The notes below the pieces were generated by a model. That model ran no database searches. It was not told the DNA's origin and saw only the letters and a program-made list of their open reading frames with translations. From the sequence record MN850581.1: a stretch of 42,446 nt of DNA; one strand, given 5' to 3'. Position numbers and translations under genes: made by a program. This DNA comes from Escherichia phage sortkaff. Position 1 is the first letter of the stretch; each line of letters starts with the position of its first letter. Shown here one piece after another: positions 2,256 to 39,906 of the stretch.

Positions 2256-2531
2256 TTATTCTTTATCATCACCCCATCGGCCAGGCTTTAGCAGGTTGCC
2301 GCGTCGCCAGTCGTCCCACACGAAGTACGGCCAGAATGCGAGCGTAAGCGCCAGGAAGAAAACGACAATCACCGCCACCAGCGCCGCCGCCAGTGGCACG
2401 AGCGACGAGGGCAGGGTGGCCGCCTCTTTGGCACAGGCGCGCCCCAGGTAGAGGCCAGCGCCCGCCCATATCTCGATCAGCATCCACGCCGCGCCGATCG
2501 CCAGGTAGGAGAAAATCATTTCGTAGAGCAT
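2256..2531 (-). CDS. hypothetical small membrane protein (two predicted TM helices)
   Basis: 91-aa ORF with hydrophobic stretches LAIGAAWMLIEIWAGAGLYL and LAAALVAVIVVFFLALTLAFW; its ATG overlaps the upstream stop (TGATG). Confidence 0.55.
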   Translation of the reverse strand: MLYEMIFSYLAIGAAWMLIEIWAGAGLYLGRACAKEAATLPSSLVPLAAALVAVIVVFFLALTLAFWPYFVWDDWRRGNLLKPGRWGDDKE

Positions 2532-3138: not shown

Positions 3139-3222
3139 GGATCCTCCCAGTCTACGGGGTCGAATGATTAGCGCCTACTTGCGGCCCTCTGGGCTTCCAT
3201 CGTTCGGCGCTGGTGGTATCGG

Positions 3223-4388: not shown

Positions 4389-4611
4389 TGTCGCCTCCCT
4401 TCGCTGCTGCTCTGCGCTGCTCGTCCATCTTCGCCACAAACTCCCGGACGCCCTGCTCCGCGAGCGCCGTCGCCTGGTTATGGCTGTAGCCCTTGCGGCG
4501 GGCTATGTCGTAAAGCTGCTGGCGCATCGTCGCCCGTTGCTGCGGTCCTACATACATACGGGAGAGGTCCGTCACGCTTGCCGCCTGCCCTTTCGTCGTC
4601 TCTTTCATCAT
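4381..4611 (-). CDS. hypothetical small protein
   Basis: 76-aa ORF starting ATGATG with RBS ACGAGG. Confidence 0.6.
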   Translation of the reverse strand: MMKETTKGQAASVTDLSRMYVGPQQRATMRQQLYDIARRKGYSHNQATALAEQGVREFVAKMDEQRRAAAKGGDNE

Positions 4612-4631
4612 TACCTCGTTTTGTCGGGGCC

Positions 4632-5081
4632 GTAACGAAACCGTTACAGCTTGAGAATGTTACACACGATCGCGATTAACAGCGTTAACCCTGCGCCGTA
4701 GACTGCGAAACATATCCAGAGAAATGTCCACGATCCGACGGCTTCCCGGAGTGGTGTTTCCTGCTCCGGCGATGTTCTCCCTCGCGCTTTCCGGGAGGGG
4801 AATTTTATCACGTTAATAGTATGCTCCTTTGCATCACGTTTCAATGATAATTATGTGTGGAAATGGTCGGGGGTTTTGGGGTTTTAACCCCCGGCAAAAT
4901 CCCCGCCGTAACACTCAAAAAATACCCGTTACCGGAATGGCTGTAAGTTACTGAATATCATCGGTAACATTGTCGGTGTAACAGTGTTACCTTTTTGAAA
5001 CTTCGGAGCCACTGGGTAACGGTAACATAAATATATACCCCCTTTAGGGGGTATATGTTATGTAACCCGTGACCGTTACCA
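4632..5081. repeat. cluster of GTAAC/GTTAC iteron-like repeats and palindromes in a roughly 480-bp largely non-coding region
   Basis: About 13 GTAAC/GTTAC pentamers in about 450 bp: palindrome GTAACGAAACCGTTAC (4632-4647), CGGTAACAttgtCGGTGTAACAGTGTTAC (4962-4990), GGTAACGGTAAC (5015-5026), GTAACccgtgaccGTTAC (5062-5079). Also a 10-bp-arm palindrome ATATACCCCC-TTTA-GGGGGTATAT (5033-5056) and hairpin CGGGGGTT/AACCCCCG (4868-4893). Confidence 0.6.
4816..4844 (-). promoter_or_regulatory. sigma70-like promoter (-35 TTGAAA, 17-bp spacer, -10 TACTAT) with CGTGAT in the spacer and again just after the -10
   Basis: Minus-strand reading TTGAAA-CGTGATgcaaaggagca-TACTAT-taaCGTGAT; would drive the downstream early small genes (4611 leftward). 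Confidence 0.4.
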
Positions 5082-5094
5082 GGAAATGTGACCG

Positions 5095-6753: not shown

Positions 6754-6790
6754 ACTGCTTTCCTTAAATCATGGTAACGTTGTCGGTAAC

Positions 6791-6819
6791 AATGTACCCC
6801 CGACGCGTTACCCGGTCAA
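6791..6819 (-). promoter_or_regulatory. leftward promoter for the RepA-like gene (-35 TTGACC, 17-bp spacer, -10 TACATT)
   Basis: Back-to-back with the rightward promoter. The predicted transcript start falls inside two direct GGTAAC repeats (6773-6778 and 6785-6790, 12-bp period) that sit between promoter and RBS. Confidence 0.4.
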
Positions 6820-6842
6820 CCCGCCGCCAGCAAAGAAAAAAC

Positions 6843-6871
6843 TTTACATCATGGTTTCATTGTTCTAATGT
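6843..6871 (+). promoter_or_regulatory. rightward early promoter (-35 TTTACA, 17-bp spacer, -10 TAATGT) with upstream A-tract
   Basis: TTTACA-tcatggtttcattgttc-TAATGT preceded by caaagaaaaaac; downstream RBS GGAGG 5 nt before the ATG at 6898. Confidence 0.5.
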
Positions 6872-6897
6872 CGATAGCGAACAAACCGGAGGCATTT

Positions 6898-7553: not shown

Positions 7554-8294
7554 ATGTTTATCGCCGTGAAAAAACATAACAGGCCCGTATTTTTGAACGT
7601 GAACGAGATCAAGATCATTCGCGACGCGGAGCCGGATATCCACAACCCGGACTATGATCCGAAGATCCACCCCGGCAGTGTGATTTTTACCACGACCGAT
7701 CAGCACAGTACGCTTGAGCGGTATTTCTCCAGCATGTCGCCGGAGGACCTGCGGGACGTGATCAACGATGCCGCCGCCCAGGTTTACGCGGCTCCTATCG
7801 CCGCCCGGATCATGAGCCTGGACAATTGCGTGGCCCGCCTGGCCCGGTCTATGGAGGACTGGCTGGAGCTGGCAAACACGCCGATCATTAACGGCGAGGA
7901 TCTGGACGTCCAGCGCATACTCGACGAGACAAAGCAGACGCTGGACAGCATCCAGCCGCGCCTCGTCGCTGGTGGTTCGCCCGGTAAGCCCCGGCATTTT
8001 GTCGGGCTGGACTCGGACGTGTTTAACGTGGTTCAGCTCCTCACGTCGCACGAGTGGGCCGATCACTGCACCAGTACGCAGTTAGGCCAGCGCCTGGAGT
8101 CGGCGATCACGGACCTGCATAACCACACCAGCGAGATCCGCCAGCGTAAGGACCGGGCGGAGGAGCTGCTGGCCGAAGTGTGGCACGAGTGGAATAACGA
8201 CGACGCCACGCGGAAAGCGCTCGGCGAGGATATGGGGAAAGTTATCGGGAATTTTTTGTGGCCCGATGAAAATAAAACTTGTGAGAAAGAATAA
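7554..8294 (+). CDS. hypothetical protein (246 aa)
   Basis: ORF with RBS GAGGAGA upstream; ATG immediately after the upstream stop. Confidence 0.7.
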   Translation: MFIAVKKHNRPVFLNVNEIKIIRDAEPDIHNPDYDPKIHPGSVIFTTTDQHSTLERYFSSMSPEDLRDVINDAAAQVYAAPIAARIMSLDNCVARLARSMEDWLELANTPIINGEDLDVQRILDETKQTLDSIQPRLVAGGSPGKPRHFVGLDSDVFNVVQLLTSHEWADHCTSTQLGQRLESAITDLHNHTSEIRQRKDRAEELLAEVWHEWNNDDATRKALGEDMGKVIGNFLWPDENKTCEKE

Positions 8295-8307
8295 ATCACG
8301 ATATAGT
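8279..8307 (+). promoter_or_regulatory. sigma70-like promoter (-35 TTGTGA, 17-bp spacer, -10 TATAGT) with ATCACGA in the spacer, followed by a GC hairpin
   Basis: TTGTGA-gaaagaataaATCACGA-TATAGT; the -35 overlaps the last codons of the upstream gene; hairpin GCCGGGG-aatgg-CCCCGGC at 8317-8335 lies in the leader. Confidence 0.4.
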
Positions 8308-8354: not shown

Positions 8355-8594
8355 ATGGCAAAATTAACAGTAGTTTCCCCGACTTCCCAGGAACGTGGCC
8401 GCCAGTGGGCTGTTAACTTCCACGTCGTAGGCGCTCCAGTTCGCCGTCGCTTCCTCTCCTGGAAAGCGCCGGAGCTGCTGAAAGGCGAGGAGCCGGAGGT
8501 GGAGGATTACGTGGACGAGTACACCACACGCGGCGAATACGAAGCCCGCCGCATCATCCATCGCAACAACCTGCGCGCCGCTGAATACTACTAA
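8355..8594 (+). CDS. hypothetical small protein
   Basis: 79 aa from MAKLTVV...; GGAG about 8 nt upstream. The ATG at 8325 lies inside the leader hairpin, so 8355 is preferred. Confidence 0.6.
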   Translation: MAKLTVVSPTSQERGRQWAVNFHVVGAPVRRRFLSWKAPELLKGEEPEVEDYVDEYTTRGEYEARRIIHRNNLRAAEYY

Positions 8595-8637: not shown

Positions 8638-8985
8638 ATGACAACAATCATTTACGCCTTACCTAAGCGCACATCACACGCGCGCACGTCTCGATCCACG
8701 CCACTGATCAGCCGTAAAAATTACAGCCTGATTACAGTCGGCGAGCTGGTGAAGTCCACGCCGAAAGGGAAGAAAATTATCCCGCTCTGGTACAACAATC
8801 CGCGCCCCCAGTTTTTCGGGAGCGACTCTTATCACTTTTTCGATAACGTCAAAGACGCGGCGGAGCATATCCGGCACGAGCTGGCCGGGACGTACAAACT
8901 TCTTAACGATCAGGCGAAGTTTATCGCGGAGCTGATCGAGGAGGCGGATCAGATCTACATATCAGCCACGGATCCAACGGCATGA
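8638..8985 (+). CDS. hypothetical protein
   Basis: 115-aa ORF with RBS GGAG (cacccaGGAGcaagccATG). Confidence 0.65.
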   Translation: MTTIIYALPKRTSHARTSRSTPLISRKNYSLITVGELVKSTPKGKKIIPLWYNNPRPQFFGSDSYHFFDNVKDAAEHIRHELAGTYKLLNDQAKFIAELIEEADQIYISATDPTA

Positions 8986-9203
8986 TCCCGGCGGACATTC
9001 AGCGCAAGGCTAAAAAGGTCCTCCAGCGCCACCTCGCCGGGGAGATTAAGCCCCGGAAGCTGGTCGGCGGTCTGGGCCTCGCGCTGGAGGTTGGTTATCG
9101 CTGGCGGCTGCTGTCACGCGATAAGGGCCAGACGTGGGATCTCATGTCCCACGAGAAGTACAACAAACTTACACGGGGCAAAAAGCCCCCTAAAATGAGA
9201 TGA
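8982..9203 (+). CDS. hypothetical small basic protein
   Basis: 73-aa ORF; start overlaps the upstream stop (ATGA). Confidence 0.55.
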   Translation: MIPADIQRKAKKVLQRHLAGEIKPRKLVGGLGLALEVGYRWRLLSRDKGQTWDLMSHEKYNKLTRGKKPPKMR

Positions 9204-12051: not shown

Positions 12052-12151
12052 ACAGTGCTAATGATACGGCGTAACCAATTGCGGCCCATGCTGCCGCGCT
12101 GGCGGCGATTACGGCCCAGATTACATAGCGGTGTCCGCGTAAGTCTTTCAT
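12050..12151 (-). CDS. putative 33-aa single-TM peptide
   Basis: MKDLRGHRYVIWAVIAASAAAWAAIGYAVSLAL; ATG overlaps the upstream stop (ATGA); immediately followed by a terminator. Not listed in the ORF track because it is short. Confidence 0.4.
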   Translation of the reverse strand: MKDLRGHRYVIWAVIAASAAAWAAIGYAVSLAL

Positions 12152-12543
12152 TTGAATTTCCCCTCTCTCTTGAATTTCATGATCCGCCCACGAAGGGACG
12201 GGACAGTTTTGCCTAACCAGTTGGCGACGTGCGCGTGGGTCAGCTCGTCCGGGACTACCACGCCGCGCCCGGTGGAGATCACCAGCTCGTCCAGGTCTGC
12301 CTCGGTCAGCTCGTGCTCCAGGAAGCGTAGGAGCCTGCTATCCTCCCCGGTGGTCCATTCCGTATAGGTCCGGTTGAATGCCAGCGACACGCCCAGCTCC
12401 GACGCCCGGACCTGCATCTGGCGGAAGTTGCGCCCGATTTTCTTTGCCAGCTCCTCGCGTGGCATGGTCCCGGCCAGGCGGATCAGCTCCGCGTCCTGCG
12501 CGTCAGTCCATCCGATAATTTCCGCTGTTACTTTACCCATCAT
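12148..12543 (-). CDS. hypothetical protein with two helix-turn-helix-like repeats
   Basis: 131 aa from ATGATG preceded by AAGGGGGA; the longer six-frame ORF (to 12840) overlaps upstream genes and its N-terminal part is Gly/Arg-rich, so is probably not translated. Confidence 0.6.
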   Translation of the reverse strand: MMGKVTAEIIGWTDAQDAELIRLAGTMPREELAKKIGRNFRQMQVRASELGVSLAFNRTYTEWTTGEDSRLLRFLEHELTEADLDELVISTGRGVVVPDELTHAHVANWLGKTVPSLRGRIMKFKREGKFK

Positions 12544-13027: not shown

Positions 13028-13298
13028 ATGCTTTCCGTAATGCGTCGTTAGCGTTAGCCATCAGCTCGGCGATCTCGCGCTGCGTGGCCTTGTATGCCTC
13101 CGGGCCTGCGTACCACATGCGGAGGCGGTTGGTAAGGCACTGCGCGTTAAAGGCCAGTGTCTGCGCCTGGACCAGCATCAGGCGGCTAACTACGCGCGCT
13201 TTGTTTGTGCGGGCGAAAATGGTCCCCGGCTGGTCGCCCCAGTATTTGGCGCGGAGGTCTGCCAGTGTCTGGCCGTTTTTGTTGGTTGCTGTAGTCAT
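13017..13298 (-). CDS. hypothetical protein
   Basis: 93 aa from MTTATNK...; RBS GAGGAAAA. Confidence 0.6.
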   Translation of the reverse strand: MTTATNKNGQTLADLRAKYWGDQPGTIFARTNKARVVSRLMLVQAQTLAFNAQCLTNRLRMWYAGPEAYKATQREIAELMANANDALRKAYGR

Positions 13299-13329
13299 TT
13301 CGTTTTCCTCGCTGGTTGGTGTGAGAAAG

Positions 13330-13358
13330 AATATAACAAAGGATAAATGGGGCCGCAA
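13330..13358 (-). promoter_or_regulatory. sigma70-like promoter (-35 TTGCGG, 17-bp spacer, -10 TATATT) for the small-gene operon
   Basis: Minus-strand reading TTGCGG-ccccatttatcctttgt-TATATT; CGTGAT at 13377-13382 upstream; overlaps the 13-mer GTGAGAAAGAATA (plus 13321-13333). Confidence 0.4.
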
Positions 13359-13380
13359 GGATTATTTTAATTATTTCGTG

Positions 13381-13410
13381 ATAAAAGAGAAAAGGCCCCG
13401 GAGTGGGGCC
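13381..13410 (-). terminator. rho-independent terminator after the Dam operon
   Basis: Minus-strand stem GGCCCC-actcc-GGGGCC followed by UUUUCUCUUUUAU. Confidence 0.7.
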
Positions 13411-13415
13411 TGAGA

Positions 13416-14153
13416 CTAGCGGACGTTAGCGAGGAAGGTCGCGAGCGCGAAGCCCTCCGGGGTGGCGCTGCGTATGTTCTTTGTGCGGGTACTCGATCCG
13501 CCCAGCTTGGACCAGCCGGGATTATCTTTAGCCGCCGGGACTGGCTTCACCTCCGGCATAACGAAGCCGCCACCACACCAGATCCCGGTCTGCTTCGGAT
13601 AGGCATCGCGCGCCGGGTAGATCTCCGGGTATAGGCGGTGCTGGTGGTCGTCCGGCAAGTAGCCGCCGTAATGGTACGGGTGAAACCAGTAATCACAGGG
13701 CCGCCACATCGTCGAGAGCCGGGAGATCTTCGGATTCTCCAGCATCCACGGAACGGGCCGCGAATCGTCATAGCTGCCATTCTCATAGGCGGCGAAGTTC
13801 GCCACCTCCTCCACCATGCGAGCCAGCGCGACGGCCTTGTGTTGGAAGTACGGATCCCGCGCCCGTTTCAGCTCCCACCAGCGCGCCCCGGTGCAAGTAA
13901 GGTCGGTACACTCGGCAAACGAGGCGACAAACTCAATACCGGGGCCGACCTCCTCGACAATGGTCAGCGCCTCGATCTCGGTATGCTGCGCGTTAAACAT
14001 GCGCCCGACGCGGATAAGGTTCGGCTCCTGCGGGTCTGGGTGGATCCCGTCCTCGTGCTGGCCGTCATACATCCAGCATTGATAGCCAGCCCGGAGCCAC
14101 GGATCAACCATGATCCGCGTAAGGTTGAATAAGAATATCGCCTTACGCGTCAT
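13416..14153 (-). CDS. hypothetical protein, possible nucleic-acid-modifying enzyme (unassigned)
   Basis: 245 aa, aromatic-rich, with short motifs reminiscent of but not diagnostic for C5-methyltransferases (LENP, TPEGFALA). Translationally coupled to the upstream gene with a GAGG RBS. Confidence 0.7.
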   Translation of the reverse strand: MTRKAIFLFNLTRIMVDPWLRAGYQCWMYDGQHEDGIHPDPQEPNLIRVGRMFNAQHTEIEALTIVEEVGPGIEFVASFAECTDLTCTGARWWELKRARDPYFQHKAVALARMVEEVANFAAYENGSYDDSRPVPWMLENPKISRLSTMWRPCDYWFHPYHYGGYLPDDHQHRLYPEIYPARDAYPKQTGIWCGGGFVMPEVKPVPAAKDNPGWSKLGGSSTRTKNIRSATPEGFALATFLANVR

Positions 14154-15483: not shown

Positions 15484-15512
15484 AACATAATGGAAGCGTG
15501 ATTTTATTTCAA
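15484..15512 (-). promoter_or_regulatory. sigma70-like promoter for the Dam operon (-35 TTGAAA, 17-bp spacer, -10 TATGTT) with ATCACGCTTCC in the spacer
   Basis: Minus-strand reading TTGAAA-taaaATCACGCTTCCat-TATGTT-aATTGCG; closely matches the promoter at 2220..2248; RBS AAAGGA before the Dam ATG. Confidence 0.45.
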
Positions 15513-16429: not shown

Positions 16430-16497
16430 GTTGTCCTCCGGTTAATTCTGCATTACTATAAATCACGCTTTAATGATATTACAAGGAATAAAAAGGC

Positions 16498-18999: not shown

Positions 19000-19028
19000 T
19001 TGCGAACATCACGAAAGCATGATATAAA
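19000..19028 (+). promoter_or_regulatory. sigma70-like promoter (-35 TTGCGA, 17-bp spacer, -10 TATAAA) with ATCACGA in the spacer
   Basis: TTGCGA-acATCACGAaagcatga-TATAAA upstream of the exonuclease gene. Confidence 0.45.
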
Positions 19029-19060: not shown

Positions 19061-20107
19061 ATGGAACTACAAACAAACGGCCTGATCCCTGAGCTGCCGA
19101 CGATGGAAGTTTACGGATCGATGTTTATCGACGCCCGCGCGGCGGAGGACCTGAGTAACGAAGCCTATCACGAGGACGAGATCTATATTACCGGGTCGAG
19201 CCTCTGGACTATCTTTAGCCAGTGTCCGGCGGCGTGGCGTTTCCAGAAAGCACAGGAGGACAAGGCCAAAAAACTTAACTCCGCCCAGAAGCCGCTCACG
19301 TTCGGGACCACTTCCCACACGATGTTACTTGAGCCGGACCGCTTCCAGCGCGAGTTTTACCGCCTGCCTAACCCGGACGACTTCCCGGAGCTGATTACCT
19401 CTATGGCGAAGATGCAAGCCTGGTTAAAGGAGCGCGGCCAGAAGGGCTACTCCAACAAAACGGCGGAGGAGCTGATCGCGATGTGTCGCCAGATCCAGCA
19501 ACCGGACGAAGTGCTAAACATCTGGCACGAGATCGAGGCAAACGCCATCAAAGAGGCGAACGGTCGCGAGATCGTCCCGGCGAAGGACTGGGACCGCGTT
19601 CACTCTATGCGCGACGTGCTGCTGGCTAACCACAATTACCGCCGGATCATTGAGACGGGGATCCCGGAGCTGTCCATCTTCTGCATTATCGACGGCGTTC
19701 CCGTTAAGGTGCGTCTGGACCGCGTAACGGACCTCGGCGAGATCATCGACTACAAAACCACGCAAAGCGCGGAGCCGGAGCGCTTCGGTCGTCTGGCTCA
19801 CGATCTGGGCTACTGGTGCAAGATGGCGTTACAGCATGACTGCTTCCAGCTCTGCTACCAGCAAAACCCGACCGGGACGAAGTTACTTGTACAGGAGAAG
19901 GACGAGCCGTGGCTGGCGCTCATGAATCGCCTTACGCCTGAGCAATTGATGATCGGGCGCGGCCAGTACAAGACGGCGCTCCAGCTCTTTAAACAGTGCC
20001 GCGATCTGGATATCTGGCCCGCATACGCGAACGGCCAGGAGGAGATCGACCTCCGCACTCCGATTTATTTACAGCAACGTTACAAAGAATATTTTAAGGA
20101 GATCTAA
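19061..20107 (+). CDS. PD-(D/E)XK recombination exonuclease (RecB/YqaJ-like fold)
   Basis: 348 aa; motif LDRVTDLGEIIDYKTT (D ... DYK) typical of RecB-family nucleases; sits directly upstream of the ERF annealing protein. Confidence 0.7.
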   Translation: MELQTNGLIPELPTMEVYGSMFIDARAAEDLSNEAYHEDEIYITGSSLWTIFSQCPAAWRFQKAQEDKAKKLNSAQKPLTFGTTSHTMLLEPDRFQREFYRLPNPDDFPELITSMAKMQAWLKERGQKGYSNKTAEELIAMCRQIQQPDEVLNIWHEIEANAIKEANGREIVPAKDWDRVHSMRDVLLANHNYRRIIETGIPELSIFCIIDGVPVKVRLDRVTDLGEIIDYKTTQSAEPERFGRLAHDLGYWCKMALQHDCFQLCYQQNPTGTKLLVQEKDEPWLALMNRLTPEQLMIGRGQYKTALQLFKQCRDLDIWPAYANGQEEIDLRTPIYLQQRYKEYFKEI

Positions 20108-21910: not shown

Positions 21911-22138
21911 ATGTTGGAGCCTATGATGGCACAGAAACTTAAGCCCGTTTGCCTCGTGAAAGAAGTCCGCGAGGCGAAGGGCGTAAAACAGAAAGATTTA
22001 GCGGACGCGACGGGCATCCTCCAGCAACGTTTAAGCTGCTATGAGAACGGCCACGAGCTGCCGTCTGTAACTAACCTCTGCCGCCTGGCTATGGCGTTGG
22101 ATGTTTCCATTAACGATCTGATCGAGTACGGGGTGTAA
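21911..22138 (+). CDS. XRE-family helix-turn-helix transcriptional regulator (Cro/CI-type)
   Basis: 75-aa ORF; HTH signature QKDLADATGILQQRLSCYENG; most likely start is the ATG at 21926 (GGAG 6 nt upstream). Confidence 0.7.
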   Translation: MLEPMMAQKLKPVCLVKEVREAKGVKQKDLADATGILQQRLSCYENGHELPSVTNLCRLAMALDVSINDLIEYGV

Positions 22139-22565: not shown

Positions 22566-24929
22566 CTACGGCCCGGAGGTGATACGCGGGCGCGTTACGA
22601 TCTGCTTGTACATCCTGATCTGAGTCTCCGCCGGGACCGCCGTCTGGATAGGGTCGGCAATGTCCACAACGATCGGCTTGCCCGTATCGTCCGGCGGCGT
22701 CTGGTACGGAGGGCGGACGACCGTCGTAACGAGGTCAGCGCCACCAGCGCCAGCGCCGGGGATAACGATCCGCGTACCGGGGGACAGCATCGTGGTATAG
22801 AGCCACGGGGATCCGGTACTCGTGCCGTTAGGCGTCAGCCATTGGGTGATCGACTTCTGGCCGACACTGGCGGCGAGGATCTTCGCCTGGTTCCCGGTCG
22901 GGAAGTACGCGCCAGCCTCGACGACCAGATAAGGCTTAAGCCCTACGATCCCATTAGGACCGCCCGCCGGGTCGTTGCTGCCATAGTCATAAGTCCAGAC
23001 CAGATCGCCCCGGTCAAACTCGCGGCCACACGGGAAGAAATTACCGTACCCGCCGTGGGAGGTGATATCAGGGAAAAACTGCTTAGACACTCCCCCCAGC
23101 ATGGCCCCCAGAGAGCCGTCAATATTGACGTACATCCGGGCCTCGACGTTACAGTTAATCATGTTGATATTGCTGTAACGGCATTTGCTCCACGCCTGCG
23201 TTACCGGGTTCAGGCTGTTCACGTTCATCATGTTCAGCACGGACTTAGTACGAATGTACTGGCCGGAGGAGGTGGTCCCGCCTGCGGAGTCGTCGCCGAT
23301 CGCGTCCAGCTCCCAGAAATTCACGTTAAACATGTCGAGCTGAGTCGCCACGCCGAAGATCGTCAGCTTATAGCAGTCGATGTTTTCCAGCTTAACGCGG
23401 TTGTCGTGCGGCGCACGGTTGACGCCTGCGGTCGGGTCGCCGGGGTCGGCTGCTACCGGGCAGTAAACGCGGCCAGTTTTCGTCTTAACGTTGCGGATCG
23501 TGTAGTTGCGCGGCGCGGACTGGCGAGGCGGCCCCCATTCCATATGGATGATTCGCAGATCGTGGACGTCGGTCGTCGCGTTGCCGACGGGTTCCCCGGT
23601 CACGCCGTCGATCACGAAGTCTTTACAGCCAGACGTGTAGATCCCGGCGGTGGTGATACCAGTCCCCACGGACTTGTTAACGTCAGGGTTTACGCAAACA
23701 TTCTCGATCACGAAGTCGCGGCCCATTTCAACGTGAATACACTGTTTACACGCATTAACAAGGACGTTACGGATCGTGAAGTTGCGCGCGTAGTTTTCAT
23801 CAGGCAGATCCCAGCCGTAAGGGCCTTTGCCCGCCACGCCGATCCCCAGCCCCCAGTTAGACGCAAAGCTGCCGGGGTTAATCCCGTCGATGTTGTCGAG
23901 GAGGATATTTTCGATCACGCATCCATCCTGGAAACACTGGTGGACCACGTTAAGCTCGATCCCGTCGCCCTGCATGTTGACGAAAGCGAGGTTGCGGAAG
24001 ATGCCGCGCGACATAAACGCATTCCCGCCCTGGTGAATGATGCCGTTATAGCCGTTGGTAAACAGACAACCGTCGATCTCGATCGTTCCCCAGATCTGCG
24101 GGCCGCCGGATTGTACGCCCTGGATGTTGATATGGCTGTTATTGCTGCCGCCGGGGATCCCGTCGTACCAGCAATCGAACATCCTCACGTCGCCGCCGTC
24201 ATGGCGCATACGGTGGCCGTTACGGCCATTAACGCCGCGTAGGGTGGTATTCTGACACCACATCGAACGACCGCGCCACGTACCGCCGATAACCTCGCAA
24301 TTCACGAAGCGGGGATCGTTGCCAGTCAGCGTCCAGTCGCCGCCGAAAATGCGAATATTGGAGGCAGTCAGGATCCCGTTAGTGGTCCCTTTCCAGCCGT
24401 CCGCCCGGACGTCGAGGCCGTTCGCGCTGGCGTAGTCAAACATGGCCTGTAAAGCTGCCGTTACAGTTGCGTAAGGTGCTTTGCCGACGAAGTTCCACGG
24501 CGTCACATAGCCGTTTAGCTGCTCCTGCACATTGCCGACGGGCGTCCCGACGTACTTCGCCCCGTTCTGGGACAGAAGCAAATTCCACATCTGGACGGGA
24601 TCATATTTAAAGAGATTGGAAAAGGTGAAGATCACGACGTCGTTTTGGTCTGCGACGACCATAGACGACTCAATTTTGGTGATCAGCTTGACCACTTGAC
24701 CATTCCAGACCGGGAAGCCTGCGACGTTCGTCCGCACGGGTTGCGGGATAGGCGTCAGGGTCCCGTCCTCGTTCTCGACGTAGACCTGGACCTGGTTCGC
24801 CGGGTTAGTGGGATCCGTGTCAGCCTTTCCCGCGTAGATCTTCCCGTTCGCCAGCGCGGCGAAACGGTCGTTGCGAAAGAAAGGTTGCGACGGCATTCCC
24901 AGATTGGAAAAGACCTCAAGATCTGCCAT
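22566..24929 (-). CDS. tailspike protein with P22 gp9-type N-terminal head-binding domain and right-handed beta-helix-like receptor-binding domain
   Basis: 787 aa; N-terminal about 110 aa align with P22 tailspike recalled from memory (FAALANGKIYAGKADTDPTNPANQVQVYVENEDG ... NGQVVKLI versus [34 protein letters not shown] ... NGQLVKIV); the rest is divergent, Gly/Asn-rich and repetitive. Confidence 0.85.
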   Translation of the reverse strand: MADLEVFSNLGMPSQPFFRNDRFAALANGKIYAGKADTDPTNPANQVQVYVENEDGTLTPIPQPVRTNVAGFPVWNGQVVKLITKIESSMVVADQNDVVIFTFSNLFKYDPVQMWNLLLSQNGAKYVGTPVGNVQEQLNGYVTPWNFVGKAPYATVTAALQAMFDYASANGLDVRADGWKGTTNGILTASNIRIFGGDWTLTGNDPRFVNCEVIGGTWRGRSMWCQNTTLRGVNGRNGHRMRHDGGDVRMFDCWYDGIPGGSNNSHINIQGVQSGGPQIWGTIEIDGCLFTNGYNGIIHQGGNAFMSRGIFRNLAFVNMQGDGIELNVVHQCFQDGCVIENILLDNIDGINPGSFASNWGLGIGVAGKGPYGWDLPDENYARNFTIRNVLVNACKQCIHVEMGRDFVIENVCVNPDVNKSVGTGITTAGIYTSGCKDFVIDGVTGEPVGNATTDVHDLRIIHMEWGPPRQSAPRNYTIRNVKTKTGRVYCPVAADPGDPTAGVNRAPHDNRVKLENIDCYKLTIFGVATQLDMFNVNFWELDAIGDDSAGGTTSSGQYIRTKSVLNMMNVNSLNPVTQAWSKCRYSNINMINCNVEARMYVNIDGSLGAMLGGVSKQFFPDITSHGGYGNFFPCGREFDRGDLVWTYDYGSNDPAGGPNGIVGLKPYLVVEAGAYFPTGNQAKILAASVGQKSITQWLTPNGTSTGSPWLYTTMLSPGTRIVIPGAGAGGADLVTTVVRPPYQTPPDDTGKPIVVDIADPIQTAVPAETQIRMYKQIVTRPRITSGP

Positions 24930-30934: not shown

Positions 30935-32395
30935 TTAGCTTACGCGGACGCGCGCACGGGACAGCGTGGCAGGCGTAGCGCCTACGGTGCGGATCTTGAA
31001 TCCGACGACGGTCCGGCAACGTCCGACCTTGTGCAAAATAACGCGTTTTAGCCACTGCTGCGGCGTGTTGTAGTCGATCAGGATCTCCTGTCCGAATACG
31101 CTCCCGTCCTCCGTGGCGCTGATCCACATCCGGCTCGTTACGCTGTCGCCGCCCACGCTGGCGTCGATCTCGAAGTCGCTTAACATCATGCCCGTAAACG
31201 GCATCAGCGGCGTATAGAGGACGATCTCCTGGTCTGCCCCGTACTGCGCGCAAGTGGTCATATCAAACGCGCCCAGTACCGCCAGCGTCTTGTCTCCGAC
31301 CGTTACGCGGTTCCCTTCGTTAACGTAGTCGATCGCGCGGTGCGGTCCGCTGGCATTTTGTACGCCCGTTTTAATGATCGTCCAGACCGGGAGGCCCTGC
31401 GCCTGGCTAACCGGGTGATCGTAGACGAGCGTTTGATCCGGTAAGTGGACAATAAGCAATTTATGGCTTTCAAAGCTGATCGCCTCCAGTCGCGTTTGTT
31501 GGAGCTGGGCCACGGTGTACCCGGCCAGAATCTTTTTAACCTGCACGGAGGCCAGATCAGACCAGTCTCCGCCGCCGGGGTTCATCAGCGCGATCGTGTA
31601 CTCGCCCACGAAAGGCGACGTAAGAAATGCGAAGCTGTTCAGGTACTGGCATACGGTTTCACGGCCCAGCGTCCCGGCCTCGACGGTGTAGGATGGCTGA
31701 TTGGCGTAAACGTTCTGGGCGTCCCCGGTCAGGCCGAAAAACTCGATCGAGGCGGTCCCGAAGCAAATCACGTAATCGCGCCACGCCCTGATCGCCACGA
31801 TGCCGTCCGGCATGGACTCCGCACGATAGAACGGCGCGATCTTGTCCGGGTGGCTCTCGTCCTCCAGCGAGGAGATCCAGAAAGTGTCCGAATTTTTCAC
31901 GCTGAAAATGTAGCGCTGGCGGAGGTGGCACACGTCGTTAATGTCGCCCCAGGTGAATTGCGGGTTGTTGACGCCCGTCCCGGAGTCCAGCGGCCAGTTA
32001 CTAAACGTCTTGCGGGTCCCGTCGTAGCGGTAGAGTAAGAGCTGGTTTCCGGTCACGACGCCCTGAGAATCGCGGCTATGGGCCATAGGAGTACGATCCT
32101 CGCCGTTGACGTCGCCGACCTCCACGCCTGCGTTATACAGCTTGCCGCCCATTACCCTATAAGCGGAGTTCGAAACCGTGTTCCAGTCGGAGCCACGGGA
32201 CAGGCCCGCCACGTCCGCGACTTTCTTAAGCCCCGGCATCATGCGCATATAGCCGTTACCGCCCTTAATCTGGCGAGCAATGGCGAGCATGTTCTCCGGT
32301 AGCCGGGTGATCCAGTCGAAGTCCGTCCGGCTGCGGCCATCACCGAAAACGATCGGCAGGTTAACGACCTGCCCGCGTTGCGCATAAGCTCCCAT
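30935..32395 (-). CDS. tail hub protein (P22 gp10-like by position and size)
   Basis: 486-aa ORF; synteny with the P22 late operon. Confidence 0.6.
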   Translation of the reverse strand: MGAYAQRGQVVNLPIVFGDGRSRTDFDWITRLPENMLAIARQIKGGNGYMRMMPGLKKVADVAGLSRGSDWNTVSNSAYRVMGGKLYNAGVEVGDVNGEDRTPMAHSRDSQGVVTGNQLLLYRYDGTRKTFSNWPLDSGTGVNNPQFTWGDINDVCHLRQRYIFSVKNSDTFWISSLEDESHPDKIAPFYRAESMPDGIVAIRAWRDYVICFGTASIEFFGLTGDAQNVYANQPSYTVEAGTLGRETVCQYLNSFAFLTSPFVGEYTIALMNPGGGDWSDLASVQVKKILAGYTVAQLQQTRLEAISFESHKLLIVHLPDQTLVYDHPVSQAQGLPVWTIIKTGVQNASGPHRAIDYVNEGNRVTVGDKTLAVLGAFDMTTCAQYGADQEIVLYTPLMPFTGMMLSDFEIDASVGGDSVTSRMWISATEDGSVFGQEILIDYNTPQQWLKRVILHKVGRCRTVVGFKIRTVGATPATLSRARVRVS

Positions 32396-36664: not shown

Positions 36665-37081
36665 TTATTTGTTGCGAGCGCCGATCATGCCCTGCCACAT
36701 GAAAACGACGGTATCAGATAACAGCTCTTTCACCTCGTCCTCGCCCATCTGCTCATAAAGCGAATCAAGCGCGCCGGGGATCTGCTCCCATAGTGCCTTT
36801 TGCCCTTCTTCCACCTGCGCGTCCGTCGGCTGGAGCTGGACCTCGATCGGGGAGGGTTCAGTGTCGCCGGACTTGACGCGGGGGTGAGCGTTAGCCATGA
36901 GGGCCTCGGCCTGCATACCCACCAGCGCGAACGCCGTCGCCAGTGCCGCCAGATCCTCCTCGGTCGGCTGCTGGATAAACATCTGGGCCAGACGGGCCTC
37001 CATAGTGCGGACCTTATCGCCGATCCCGTTCTCGTCGCACTCGGCCAGAATGATCGCGCGCGCTGCTTTTACTTGATCCAT
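36665..37081 (-). CDS. hypothetical acidic protein (cassette gene B)
   Basis: 138-aa ORF; RBS GAGAGAGAA. Confidence 0.65.
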   Translation of the reverse strand: MDQVKAARAIILAECDENGIGDKVRTMEARLAQMFIQQPTEEDLAALATAFALVGMQAEALMANAHPRVKSGDTEPSPIEVQLQPTDAQVEEGQKALWEQIPGALDSLYEQMGEDEVKELLSDTVVFMWQGMIGARNK

Positions 37082-37132
37082 TGTGTTCTCTCTCGTCGGT
37101 TAATGATGCCCCGGCGGTCCGGGGCGGTCTGG

Positions 37133-37570
37133 TTATGCGTTGCCCTGCGCCTGAGCGGCCAGGAGCTGGATAATCGGCTCCACGTCGGCCTCCGCCGCCG
37201 GGATAGGCAGGTCAACCACGCCGCGCGGCTCGCCTTTGGAAATGTGGAATTTCCAGATCGCCATCACGTCGTCCAGCGAGTAGCCCGCCAGGATCTCCTC
37301 GTGGATCTTCTGCGCGCCGTTGGTTTCGTTAAACTCCAGGACCTGATCAACGGTCGGCATCTGGTTCCCGAATTTCGCCATTGTGCGGGCCATGACGACC
37401 ACGCCGACGCCACGGGACAGGAAGGTGTTACCCTGCTCGCCGCCGGAAACCATCACGGCGATCTCCGGCTCGTCGGTGTTCGGGTGGTAGGCAAGGGCGA
37501 GGGTAACGAAGCCGCCGCGCGGGGTGACTTCGAAAACGCGAGCTGCTGGGGTGGTGGTGATCTCTTTCAT
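37133..37570 (-). CDS. hypothetical protein (cassette gene A)
   Basis: 145-aa ORF; RBS GAGAGAGGA; preceded by its own promoter and operator-like palindrome. Confidence 0.65.
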   Translation of the reverse strand: MKEITTTPAARVFEVTPRGGFVTLALAYHPNTDEPEIAVMVSGGEQGNTFLSRGVGVVVMARTMAKFGNQMPTVDQVLEFNETNGAQKIHEEILAGYSLDDVMAIWKFHISKGEPRGVVDLPIPAAEADVEPIIQLLAAQAQGNA

Positions 37571-37588: not shown

Positions 37589-37645
37589 ATCACGATAGCG
37601 TGATGTTGTGTGAGAAAGAATAGCCCGGACGTACCGGGCTGTAAA
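37589..37645 (-). promoter_or_regulatory. promoter (-35 TTTACA, 17-bp spacer, -10 TATTCT) plus 16-bp near-palindrome ATCACGATAGCGTGAT in the leader
   Basis: Minus-strand reading TTTACA-GCCCGGTACGTCCGGGC-TATTCT; the spacer is the portal terminator stem-loop; near-palindrome at plus 37589-37604 lies about +6 to +21. Confidence 0.45.
37611..37640 (-). terminator. rho-independent terminator after the portal gene
   Basis: Minus-strand stem AGCCCGG-uacgu-CCGGGCU followed by AUUCUUUCUC, about 30 nt after the portal stop. Confidence 0.55.
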
Positions 37646-37671: not shown

Positions 37672-39906
37672 TTATTGTGCGGCACGTTCCAGGGTGTTGT
37701 CGGCCTGCTGCTGCGCCTGGCGCTCGGCCAGTTGCTGCGCTGCTCGGTCGCTCTGGATCTGGTGGCCCTGCCCTACGGATTTCAGGAACAAGTCGGCCTG
37801 TTTGTGCGCGTCCTGGCTCTGGGCCGTGACGTACTTCTGGAGGATGGCAACGGCGGCCATTAGCTGATCCTGCGGGATAGCTGCGGCCTCGGCCATCGTC
37901 TTGACGGTCTGCGCCTGCTTGAGCTGGCCGTCTGCCTGCGTCCCCTGCGCCTTGAGCTGCAATTCTAAGCGCTTGTTGTCCTGCTCCATAACGGCGGCCT
38001 TGCCCTGGTCTGCCACGCCCTGCGCTGCGACCATCTGCGCGTCCGGCTGGTCCTGCTGGCTCTGCTGGGCCTGCGCTACCATCTGTTTTTCCTCGTCCGT
38101 CTGCGGCTTCACAATGCCGGAGAGTAAAAGCTGGTTGCGGGTGTACTCTTTGAAGTCCTGGAGGCCCTCGCCGTCCATGTTCGCGATGATCAGGCTCATG
38201 ACGATCGTCGCGTTAGGGTCGCCCGGTTGCATGGTCGCTAACAGGTTAGTCAGGCTGCGGACAGTCTGCTGGCGTCGCGTCTGGGAGGACTCGCCGACGT
38301 CGGCCACGATCTCATATTTGCCGCGCTTGAGGTCGTTAATCGCGATCACTTCCTTCGTCTCGCGATCGACTACCTTCCCGGTCATTAACACGAGGTCGTC
38401 GCTCCCGTCCTCCTGCTGGATCCTCACGTAAGACTCGGAGCCGTAAACCTTGCGAGCGGCGGACAGGTAGACGCGGCCACAATGGCGCAACGTCTTAGCC
38501 AGGTTGTCCATGTAGAGCGCGCCCTGGCCGTCCATGCGCGCGAAAATTGCCTCCACGGTTTCAGTCGCCAGATTCGACGGCAGCGCTTCGAGCTGGGAGG
38601 ATCCGACAATCTGCTGGATCGTCGCCCCGGTGTACTGGAGAACGGCAGCGAGCGCCGGAGAGAGCGGAGTCGCCGGAGTATAGCCCAGCGGTCCGGCCTG
38701 CTGGACGACCTCACCAGACGCATTACGGAGCGATTTAGCGGGCAGATACGCGGGGCGCTTCGTGTTGCGATCCCCCCAGGCGTTGGCGAGATTTCCGGGG
38801 ATCATGTCGATATCCATGATCGGGATGTTGTCGCCGCCTGCCTGCGCGGCCTGGTCGGCCATCATCGACACGATCAGGTTTTCCAGACGCTGGGCGTCCA
38901 TCGCGAGCGTGGCGTGGCCCATCACGCGCTCCTGGTTGTCGATAAACGAGCGGCGCGCGTTGAAGATGAAAACCGGGATCCATTCGAACGGGATCAGCTT
39001 CGGCTCCTCGATCCACTCCCCGCCGGAAAACAGACCGCAATAGACCTTACGACGTTTGACACGGCGATCCTTGAGCTTTTTCCAGCCTGCGGCCTTAAGC
39101 TCGTCGAAAACCTGCTCCATGTCGTCCTCGTCGTAGACCTCCGTTTCCCCGGTGAGCGGGTTCTGGTAGGAGATCACGGTGGTGTCCTCGATCTTCACCT
39201 CGTAGTAACGGGCGATATAAATCGCGTCTTTAGAGGCCCAGTCAAACCATTTGCCCGTGTTCAGCTCCATGAGGTCCTCCGGGGCCATCGCGTCCGGGTA
39301 ACGCTCCTCGTACTTCTCCGGGGTCATGCTGAATAGCTCGGCCATCCACATAGCATCACTGCGATCGTACATTTTGGAGTCAGGATCGACAAAGAGGCAC
39401 GAGGCCGGATCGTAGATCGGGTAAAAGACGATGTGCCGCTCCTCGTTGTCGGGATCAAATTCGTCCTCCAGCTCCGTGTCCATGCGAAACGCGCCCATCC
39501 CGCCGTCGATGCCGTCGCCGTAAGTGTTATCGACGGACTCCGGCCCGTTGCTCTCGTTGTAGTCGGCGCGGAATTTGCCGTTTAGCTTGTCGGCCAGCTC
39601 CTCGGATGCCTTTTCGTCCTTCGGACGGAATACCACGGAGACACGGTTTAGGCGGTAATCGGTGATCAGGCGGTCGCACTCGCGGGCCACTTTGTTAAGT
39701 TCGAATCGAGGGTATTTCTCGAATCGTTCATCATCCATCGCAAAGCCGGAGTTGGTCGATCCTTCCCACTGCGCGCCCGGAATACGGACAAAGCGCTGGG
39801 TTTCGATCATTTTCTTGCGGCTTTGCTCCTCGCTGGCGATCGTCTGGCTCAGGCGCTTACGCGCCGTCTCATGCCAGTTCTGGGCCGATTTGGTGACTCG
39901 TGCCAT
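37672..39906 (-). CDS. portal protein, P22 gp1-like
   Basis: 744 aa; similarity to P22 portal recalled from memory (ARYYEVKIEDTTVISYQNPLTGETEVY ... KDRRVKRRKVY versus [27 protein letters not shown] ... AERQIKRRRVY); Gln-rich C-terminal helical region. Confidence 0.9.
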   Translation of the reverse strand: MARVTKSAQNWHETARKRLSQTIASEEQSRKKMIETQRFVRIPGAQWEGSTNSGFAMDDERFEKYPRFELNKVARECDRLITDYRLNRVSVVFRPKDEKASEELADKLNGKFRADYNESNGPESVDNTYGDGIDGGMGAFRMDTELEDEFDPDNEERHIVFYPIYDPASCLFVDPDSKMYDRSDAMWMAELFSMTPEKYEERYPDAMAPEDLMELNTGKWFDWASKDAIYIARYYEVKIEDTTVISYQNPLTGETEVYDEDDMEQVFDELKAAGWKKLKDRRVKRRKVYCGLFSGGEWIEEPKLIPFEWIPVFIFNARRSFIDNQERVMGHATLAMDAQRLENLIVSMMADQAAQAGGDNIPIMDIDMIPGNLANAWGDRNTKRPAYLPAKSLRNASGEVVQQAGPLGYTPATPLSPALAAVLQYTGATIQQIVGSSQLEALPSNLATETVEAIFARMDGQGALYMDNLAKTLRHCGRVYLSAARKVYGSESYVRIQQEDGSDDLVLMTGKVVDRETKEVIAINDLKRGKYEIVADVGESSQTRRQQTVRSLTNLLATMQPGDPNATIVMSLIIANMDGEGLQDFKEYTRNQLLLSGIVKPQTDEEKQMVAQAQQSQQDQPDAQMVAAQGVADQGKAAVMEQDNKRLELQLKAQGTQADGQLKQAQTVKTMAEAAAIPQDQLMAAVAILQKYVTAQSQDAHKQADLFLKSVGQGHQIQSDRAAQQLAERQAQQQADNTLERAAQ

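Follow-up and report, generated by a model that had tools for sequence, protein, structure and literature searches.

Between the portal gene (37672-39906, minus strand) and the gene starting at 37570 on the same strand (hyp42), which is followed by more small genes and then by the scaffold and capsid genes, lies one of three copies of a short word that recurs in this phage genome. Another copy separates the methyltransferase gene (13416-14153, minus strand) from a small gene starting at 13298 (minus strand, hyp15), in whose operon a match to 'transcriptional regulator, D5-like' is encoded at 12148-12540; beyond this operon, after another gap, comes a tail or decoration protein gene. The remaining copy is found where a variable gene (7554-8294, plus strand) gives way to a conserved gene starting at 8355 (plus strand, hyp05), with the lysis cassette further downstream. 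We refer to the copies at 8281, 13321 and 37610 as A, B and C, respectively; all three sit in intergenic promoter regions.

The window, that is the whole stretch of 42,446 nucleotides, is the complete, circularly permuted genome of a podophage of the genus Sortsnevirus. Its identity to Klebsiella phage vB_KpnS_IME279 (IME279), from which the gene map was carried over by tblastn, is about 98%; within the genus, Kosakonia phage Kc237 and Escherichia phage Sortsne stand further away. Six Sortsnevirus genomes were compared, namely this genome, IME279, two IMG/VR contigs (one of them UViG_2751185941), Kc237 and Sortsne; few new genomes were gained from orthologue searches with the methyltransferase and hyp05 proteins. 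Neither a phage RNA polymerase nor a phage sigma factor is annotated in IME279, Kc237 or Sortsne, and a Pfam search with 30 small proteins gave no match to either; because both are absent, the promoters considered below are not of the T7 type. Protein searches pointed to only two regulator candidates, an HTH_3 protein (21911-22138) and the 'D5-like' regulator mentioned above. An Rfam search of the entire genome gave no match, and a tRNA scan found nothing. In the literature on Sortsnevirus, Murrayvirus and their relatives we found no analysis of promoters, transcripts or transcription control.

A genome-wide search returned three exact plus-strand copies of GTGAGAAAGAATA, at 8281-8293, 13321-13333 and 37610-37622, just as the first-pass annotation of this DNA had described; with up to one mismatch allowed, the whole genome held no match beyond these three. 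The annotation had also considered three copies to be beyond chance, and the shuffled sequences agree with it: the mean over 100 shuffles was 0.02 matches of GTGAGAAAGAATA, and three or more were reached in 0 of 100. The word actually common to the three sites is the 14-mer TGTGAGAAAGAATA, starting at 8280, 13320 and 37609 on the plus strand, and a word count showed it to be the sole word of 14 nt or longer with at least three copies in the genome. A longer repeat of trivial origin, such as an assembly artefact, was the objection raised in advance against the repeat; it is excluded because the flanks of the three copies (40 nt on either side) do not align with one another. It is hardly conceivable, then, that the repeat is due to chance or to an assembly or sequence artefact, the same sites being present in independently sequenced relatives. 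A scan of IMG/VR for the exact 14-mer gave at least 120 stretches; among the matches listed, all were single copies on contigs outside the relatives, and we set them aside as uninformative noise.

Promoters were scored with a crude sigma-70 position weight matrix over 424,150 configurations. By this crude measure, each copy falls on one of the 17 highest-scoring sigma-70-like sites, with the rightward promoter at A ranking 7, B ranking 8 and C ranking 17. Both B and C show a TAnnnT -10 element placed 16-18 bp from a -35-like hexamer, lie 22 and 39 nt, respectively, upstream of an ATG with a ribosome-binding site, and face their gene. The reverse reading of copy A (GCGACA-19-TATTCT) ranked 856, its spacing falling outside 16-18 bp, and it runs into the upstream gene from the 3' side.

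The features at copy C are as follows.

37609..37622, minus strand: copy C, TATTCTTTCTCACA on the gene strand; predicted -10 element TATTCT, discriminator and CA start, with the start predicted near 37611

37617..37645, minus strand: predicted leftward promoter TTTACA-17-TATTCT for the gene from 37570 and the downstream head genes

37605..37613, minus strand: predicted leader start TCACACAAC, shared by the phage family

37622..37640, minus strand: hairpin AGCCCGG-tacg-TCCGGGCT of 7 pairs, filling the 17-bp spacer of promoter C

37590..37605, no strand assigned: perfect palindrome ATCACG-N4-CGTGAT, operator-like, in the leader of promoter C and 4 nt from copy C

Read on the gene strand, the order at C is TTTACA - GCCCGGTACGTCCGGGC - TATTCT - TTCTCACACAAC - ATCACGCTATCGTGAT - ribosome-binding site - ATG. 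This promoter is conserved across four genera, and the leaders diverge directly after the word. The spacer hairpin with its tail ATTCTTTCTC (an interrupted tract, 6 of 10 bases being T) was also scored as a terminator for the portal gene, and from its sequence it looks like an intrinsic terminator of that gene. Its stem covaries between genera (GCCCGG/CCGGGC, GCCCGC/GCGGGC and GCCCCA/TGGGGC), and for this reason we consider the hairpin to be real. Since the tail of the Skarpretter orthologue, ATAGTCTCCT, is not T-rich and the -10 element is kept, the promoter role appears to be the conserved one at C. In the vicinity, at 37082-37132, this genome lacks a gene of about 270 bp that is present in IME279 (gp41, 32055-32327), where it separates the homologues of 36665-37081 and 37133-37570.

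At copy B the arrangement is similar.

13320..13333, minus strand: copy B, TATTCTTTCTCACA on the gene strand; -10 region, discriminator and CA start, with the start predicted near 13322

13330..13358, minus strand: predicted leftward promoter TTGCGG-17-TATATT, with TGT just upstream of the -10 element, for the gene from 13298

13315..13324, minus strand: predicted leader start TCACACCAAC, common to the phage family

13393..13411, minus strand: terminator-like hairpin after the methyltransferase gene and upstream of promoter B, with the tail TTTTCTCTTTTATCACG

The gene strand here reads hairpin, TTTTCTCTTTTATCACG, A/T-rich stretch, TTGCGG-17-TATATT, CTTTCTCACACCAACC, ribosome-binding site and ATG, so that TGT-TATATT, 17 bp from TTGCGG, overlaps the word. 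The -35 element TTGCG and a 35-nt block running from the spacer to the leader are invariant in the six genomes.

Copy A differs in its orientation.

8280..8293, plus strand: copy A, TGTGAGAAAGAATA, inverted with respect to the local plus-strand genes and occupying about -34 to -21 of the rightward promoter

8279..8307, plus strand: rightward sigma-70-like promoter TTGTGA-17-TATAGT, predicted for the gene from 8355 with the lysis cassette further downstream

8295..8300, plus strand: ATCACG half-site in the spacer of the rightward promoter, 1 nt from copy A

The -35 and -10 elements of the rightward promoter are kept in relatives. Copy A includes the TAA stop codon (8292-8294) of the upstream ORF 7554-8294, so the overlap of this copy with a -35 element (TTGTGA) and with the end of a coding region, reported in the first-pass annotation, is correct. 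The same annotation had assigned to the complement of the other two copies a -10 element and the first transcribed bases. At 37610 the -10 element is indeed TATTCT of TTTACA-17-TATTCT; at 13321 the word overlaps the -10 element, the best-scoring hexamer being TATATT, 2 bp upstream; and at both places the word probably provides the first transcribed bases. Downstream of copy A in the antisense direction we found neither a convincing terminator nor a conserved hairpin that would mark an antisense product, only a weak 5-pair hairpin site at 8220-8203. Further along, 8982-9203 on the plus strand encodes a protein of 73 aa that carries a ParE-like toxin domain (E = 1e-19); its gene has small genes as neighbours, and the lysis cassette follows downstream.

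The half-sites of ATCACG-N4-CGTGAT are conserved in relatives, with a variable N4. Half-sites were noted at 2230-2235, 15495-15500, 16459-16464, 19008-19013, 8295-8300 and 13379-13384; they lie in the spacers of most predicted sigma-70 promoters, including most of those other than A to C, and also close to 21911-22138, which encodes the one clear HTH protein. All three copies adjoin predicted promoters and ATCACG elements, as had been claimed. The nearest half-sites are 1 nt from A, 4 nt from C and 45 nt from B (13379-13384), and because the spacing differs at each copy, the possibility that the word is part of the ATCACG-N4-CGTGAT operator was rejected. Likewise, none of the binding sites for DnaA, CRP, Fur, IHF, Fis, CpxR and RcsAB appears to fit all three copies.

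When two mismatches were allowed, two further sites came into question. The one at 20079 falls within the coding sequence of the exonuclease VIII (exoVIII) gene, in its conserved end part. The other is the following.

2257..2269, minus strand: doubtful fourth copy, ATGATAAAGAATA, upstream of TTGCAT-17-TATCTT and covering the stop codon of the upstream gene

We treat it as doubtful because about one match of such quality is expected by chance. Its reverse reading, GTGATA-17-TATTCT, scored 8.9 with the crude matrix, and the near-copy may be merely an A/T-rich upstream region.

Close to this site we observed a candidate leader RNA, a GC-rich stretch of 156 nt at 2056-2211 on the minus strand (AGGGCGGCGGCAGGAUGCAGCC...CGCCGCCC), which starts about 8 nt past the -10 element of TTGCAT-17-TATCTT and leaves 27 nt to the ATG at 2028. 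It is near-identical in IME279, Salmonella phage Lumpael and five other IMG/VR phage contigs, where it stands behind different promoters and ahead of unrelated genes, and it is absent from Sortsne, Kc237 and IME_EC2. Compensatory changes are present in two helices and, by eye, in the closing helix too; the folding energy is no better than that of shuffled sequences (z = +1.2), and an Rfam search with the region 1950-2330 gave no match. Several GGA motifs occur in it, including CAGGAUG. A mobile cis-acting leader, a put-like antiterminator and a CsrA-binding element are all possibilities. In IME279 an extra gene, gp51, lies between the leader RNA and the homologue of 1090-2028. Nearby, at 2734-2758 on the minus strand, the reading frame homologous to IME279 gp53 is interrupted by an in-frame stop close to its 5' end and is open only from the GTG at 2734.

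Other repeated elements of the genome deserve a brief mention. There are 19 copies of GATCCNCCCAG (for example at 1069, 7272, 11662, 15954, 35861 and 38769) against about 0.15 expected from base composition, and 5-20 copies in relatives. These lie on both strands, mostly within genes, and because they occupy all three frames and encode unrelated peptides, the motif is one of nucleic acid and not of protein sequence. The E. coli Chi sequence GCTGGTGG occurs 16 times versus about 2.4 expected (for example at 3209, 3379 and 3618 on the plus strand and at 22741, 30381 and 36919 on the minus strand), and these copies may protect against RecBCD; if the genome ends correspond to the start of the IME279 record (near 4545), three plus-strand Chi sites fall within about 1.5 kb of the right end. 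Long non-coding regions at 4576-5094 and 6754-6897 flank a RepA-like ATPase gene, are rich in GGTAAC/GTTACC repeats and contain the palindrome ATATACCCCCTAAAGGGGGTATAT; they are probably a replication origin and/or the genome terminus.

In the six Sortsnevirus genomes the three orthologous sites keep TATTCTTT-N-TCAC, the ninth base of the word being C, A or G. Most of the substitutions are of a kind that a promoter tolerates, affecting a free discriminator position (C/A/G), the weakly constrained middle of the -10 element (TATCCT) or the start, where A is changed to G. The one exception is an A-to-T change at the predicted start of a metagenomic copy C, in which CAC remains 2 nt downstream. 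Copy A is kept in IME279, UViG_2751185941, Sortsne (one change) and Kc237 (two changes), where it reads TATCCTTTCTCGC. An extra copy, TGGACA-17-TATTCTTTATCAC, is found only in Sortsne. Concerted evolution at the variable fifth base was also considered and dropped, being not significant with only two deep lineages.

A broader motif, consisting of a -10 box, 4-5 nt and then TCACAC(C)AAC, recurs in related genera, in Lumpael and in Kc166B. Skarpretter has four copies of it, with A exactly 7 nt past TATAGT, and in IME_EC2 it is found at the promoter of the exoVIII gene. Given that this arrangement is shared by the family, we regard B and C as the local form of a core promoter and leader start used family-wide. 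The first-pass annotation had proposed a conserved transcript 5' end. Because TCACAC(C)AAC trails the -10 boxes at several promoters of the family, this idea gains support for B and C; it does not extend to copy A, which is inverted relative to the genes and has no leader. At orthologous promoters of Murrayvirus, Skarprettervirus, Hungariovirus and Kc166B, a palindrome TAGCAC-N4-TGCTA is centred near -42. In the first three of these groups it is given as TAGCAC-N4-TGCTA(AA), at promoters without a good -35 element, and resembles the MarA/SoxS/Rob box. This suggests that the promoters of the sister genera are activator-dependent, whereas those of Sortsnevirus have self-sufficient -35 boxes.

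The thrice-repeated word appears to be an ordinary regulatory motif, hitherto undescribed. The explanation to which we give slightly better than even chances is that it represents the core (about -12 to +2) of a host sigma-70 promoter class, present in the sense orientation at B and C and inverted at A. Host sigma-70 RNA polymerase would find in such a core TATTCT as the -10 hexamer, TTNT as a T-rich discriminator and CA(C) as the start. B and C would restart leftward transcription after a terminator-like hairpin, B serving hyp15 (13298) and its operon with the putative regulator, and C serving hyp42 (37570) and the head genes, and the transcripts from both would begin with the family-wide CA-rich leader ACAC(C)AAC. 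At C, the T-rich bases would have a second role, forming the tail of the hairpin that lies in the promoter spacer and would terminate the portal gene. Copy A would be the same core in the opposite orientation, placed inside the -35/spacer part of the rightward promoter of hyp05 (8355), most simply a back-to-back divergent (antisense) core promoter or a relic of one, and it could hold polymerase facing the upstream operon.

Two spacings argue for a promoter core: TATTCT at C is exactly 17 bp from TTTACA, and the extra copy in Sortsne is 17 bp from TGGACA. Moreover, A, B and C share exactly the part contacted by polymerase (-12 to +2) and not the leader. On the other side stand the inversion of copy A, whose sole -35-like partner, GCGACA, is at 19 bp, the failure to find either an antisense terminator or a conserved antisense product there, and the 2-bp offset between the best -10 hexamer at B and TATTCT of the word. 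The conservation of copy A may be explained in part by the overlapping rightward promoter; for this copy, a weak antisense promoter, a site of protein binding and a relic all come into consideration. In addition, the 14-nt identity and the 35-nt invariant block at B exceed the needs of sigma-70, which hints at an additional factor.

It is possible, though rather unlikely, that the 14-mer is an asymmetric operator for a phage or host DNA-binding protein that co-regulates three operons (lysis, hyp15-to-regulator and head genes), occluding the -10/+1 region at B and C and the -35/spacer region at A. Since the orientation of a blocking site is irrelevant, one mechanism would then cover all three copies, and the shared identity longer than a promoter requires, like the invariant block at B, would find its reason. 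The palindrome near -42 at orthologous sites in the sister genera indicates that the sites form one co-regulated set, and both regulator candidates, the HTH_3 protein and the 'D5-like' protein, are at hand. Yet the word shows neither a dyad nor a direct repeat, the symmetry with which dimeric regulators are usually associated, ATCACG-N4-CGTGAT is already available as a clear palindromic candidate for an operator, no protein could be linked to the word, and the shared segment is in register with the -10 element and the start at two copies here and a third in Sortsne. A similarly doubtful proposition is that the 14-mer is more than a promoter core, namely a dedicated control element of Sortsnevirus, either an operator timing three late operons or, in its inverted copy, an antisense promoter. 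In the latter version, polymerase bound at 8281, and perhaps at 2257, may replace a terminator and insulate the late modules from early read-through; upstream hairpins are present at B and C, and there is none at A or at the doubtful copy at 2257.

We consider it quite improbable that duplication of a promoter cassette or a small inversion left copy A behind as a relic devoid of function, with the repeat marking microhomology at module junctions, much like the recombination-prone cassette envisaged at the outset. In its favour, 37610 is precisely where the homology to Kc237 breaks off, the change from the variable gene upstream of A to the conserved block downstream falls near 8243-8281, and the cassette of -10 box and leader fronts different genes in different genera; the Murrayvirus orthologue of promoter A has TATAGT-TCTTTCAC in the forward orientation. 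Nevertheless, 14 bp is little sequence for homologous exchange, no mosaic junction coincides with B, and decay in the spacer of promoter A would be the expected fate of a relic, yet copy A is kept with 0-2 changes. The copies occupy fixed orthologous positions in all six Sortsnevirus genomes, and the idea of a mobile module found no sign that the 13-mer moves.

Together with ATCACG-N4-CGTGAT and the TCACAC(C)AAC leader start, the word provides a first testable promoter/operator map for these phages, a group of P22-like lytic podophages infecting Klebsiella, E. coli, Salmonella and Kosakonia that includes candidates for therapy. The inverted copy A offers a simple test case for the use of divergent or antisense promoters in this group. 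The general understanding of promoters is unchanged by the word.

Several known systems resemble parts of this picture. The lambda pO/OOP and P22 sar promoters are antisense promoters, and from copy A, too, an RNA complementary to the 3' end of the gene upstream would be transcribed, its putative start lying just past the stop codon of that gene; in contrast to those systems, A has a weak -35 element, and neither a terminator nor a conserved antisense RNA was found there. The stoperators of cluster A mycobacteriophages are 13-bp asymmetric sites bound by the L5 gp71 repressor, occurring in 20-30 copies oriented with transcription. Our word is also a 13-bp asymmetric sequence in short intergenic regions overlapping promoters, but it has three copies, one of them against local transcription, and only generic regulator candidates were found. 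Promoter plus stem-loop cassettes (PeSL) of T4-type phages, reportedly described by Arbiol and co-workers in 2010, share with the present case a short repeated unit of promoter and hairpin at the boundaries of gene modules, and 2 of the 3 word copies are at mosaic junctions. Unlike such cassettes, which lie at variable positions flanking novel ORFs, the word has only three copies at the same orthologous sites in six genomes, with no sign of mediating shuffling. Overlapping terminator-promoter units have a counterpart at C, where the covarying GC hairpin and ATTCTTTCTC lie inside the promoter spacer, although the T tract is interrupted at C and the corresponding tail in Skarpretter is not T-rich. 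A further comparison is with phage promoter classes that host sigma-70 polymerase reads and whose conserved cores are specific to a family (such as T7 and T5 early promoters and published motif sets). From these the word differs in that its 14-nt identity spans the discriminator and the start, one copy is inverted inside a promoter, and its starts are predicted from sequence alone; it resembles them in the -35 and -10 elements spaced by 17 bp, in the location in intergenic gaps after terminators, in the repetition within the genome and in the conservation among relatives.
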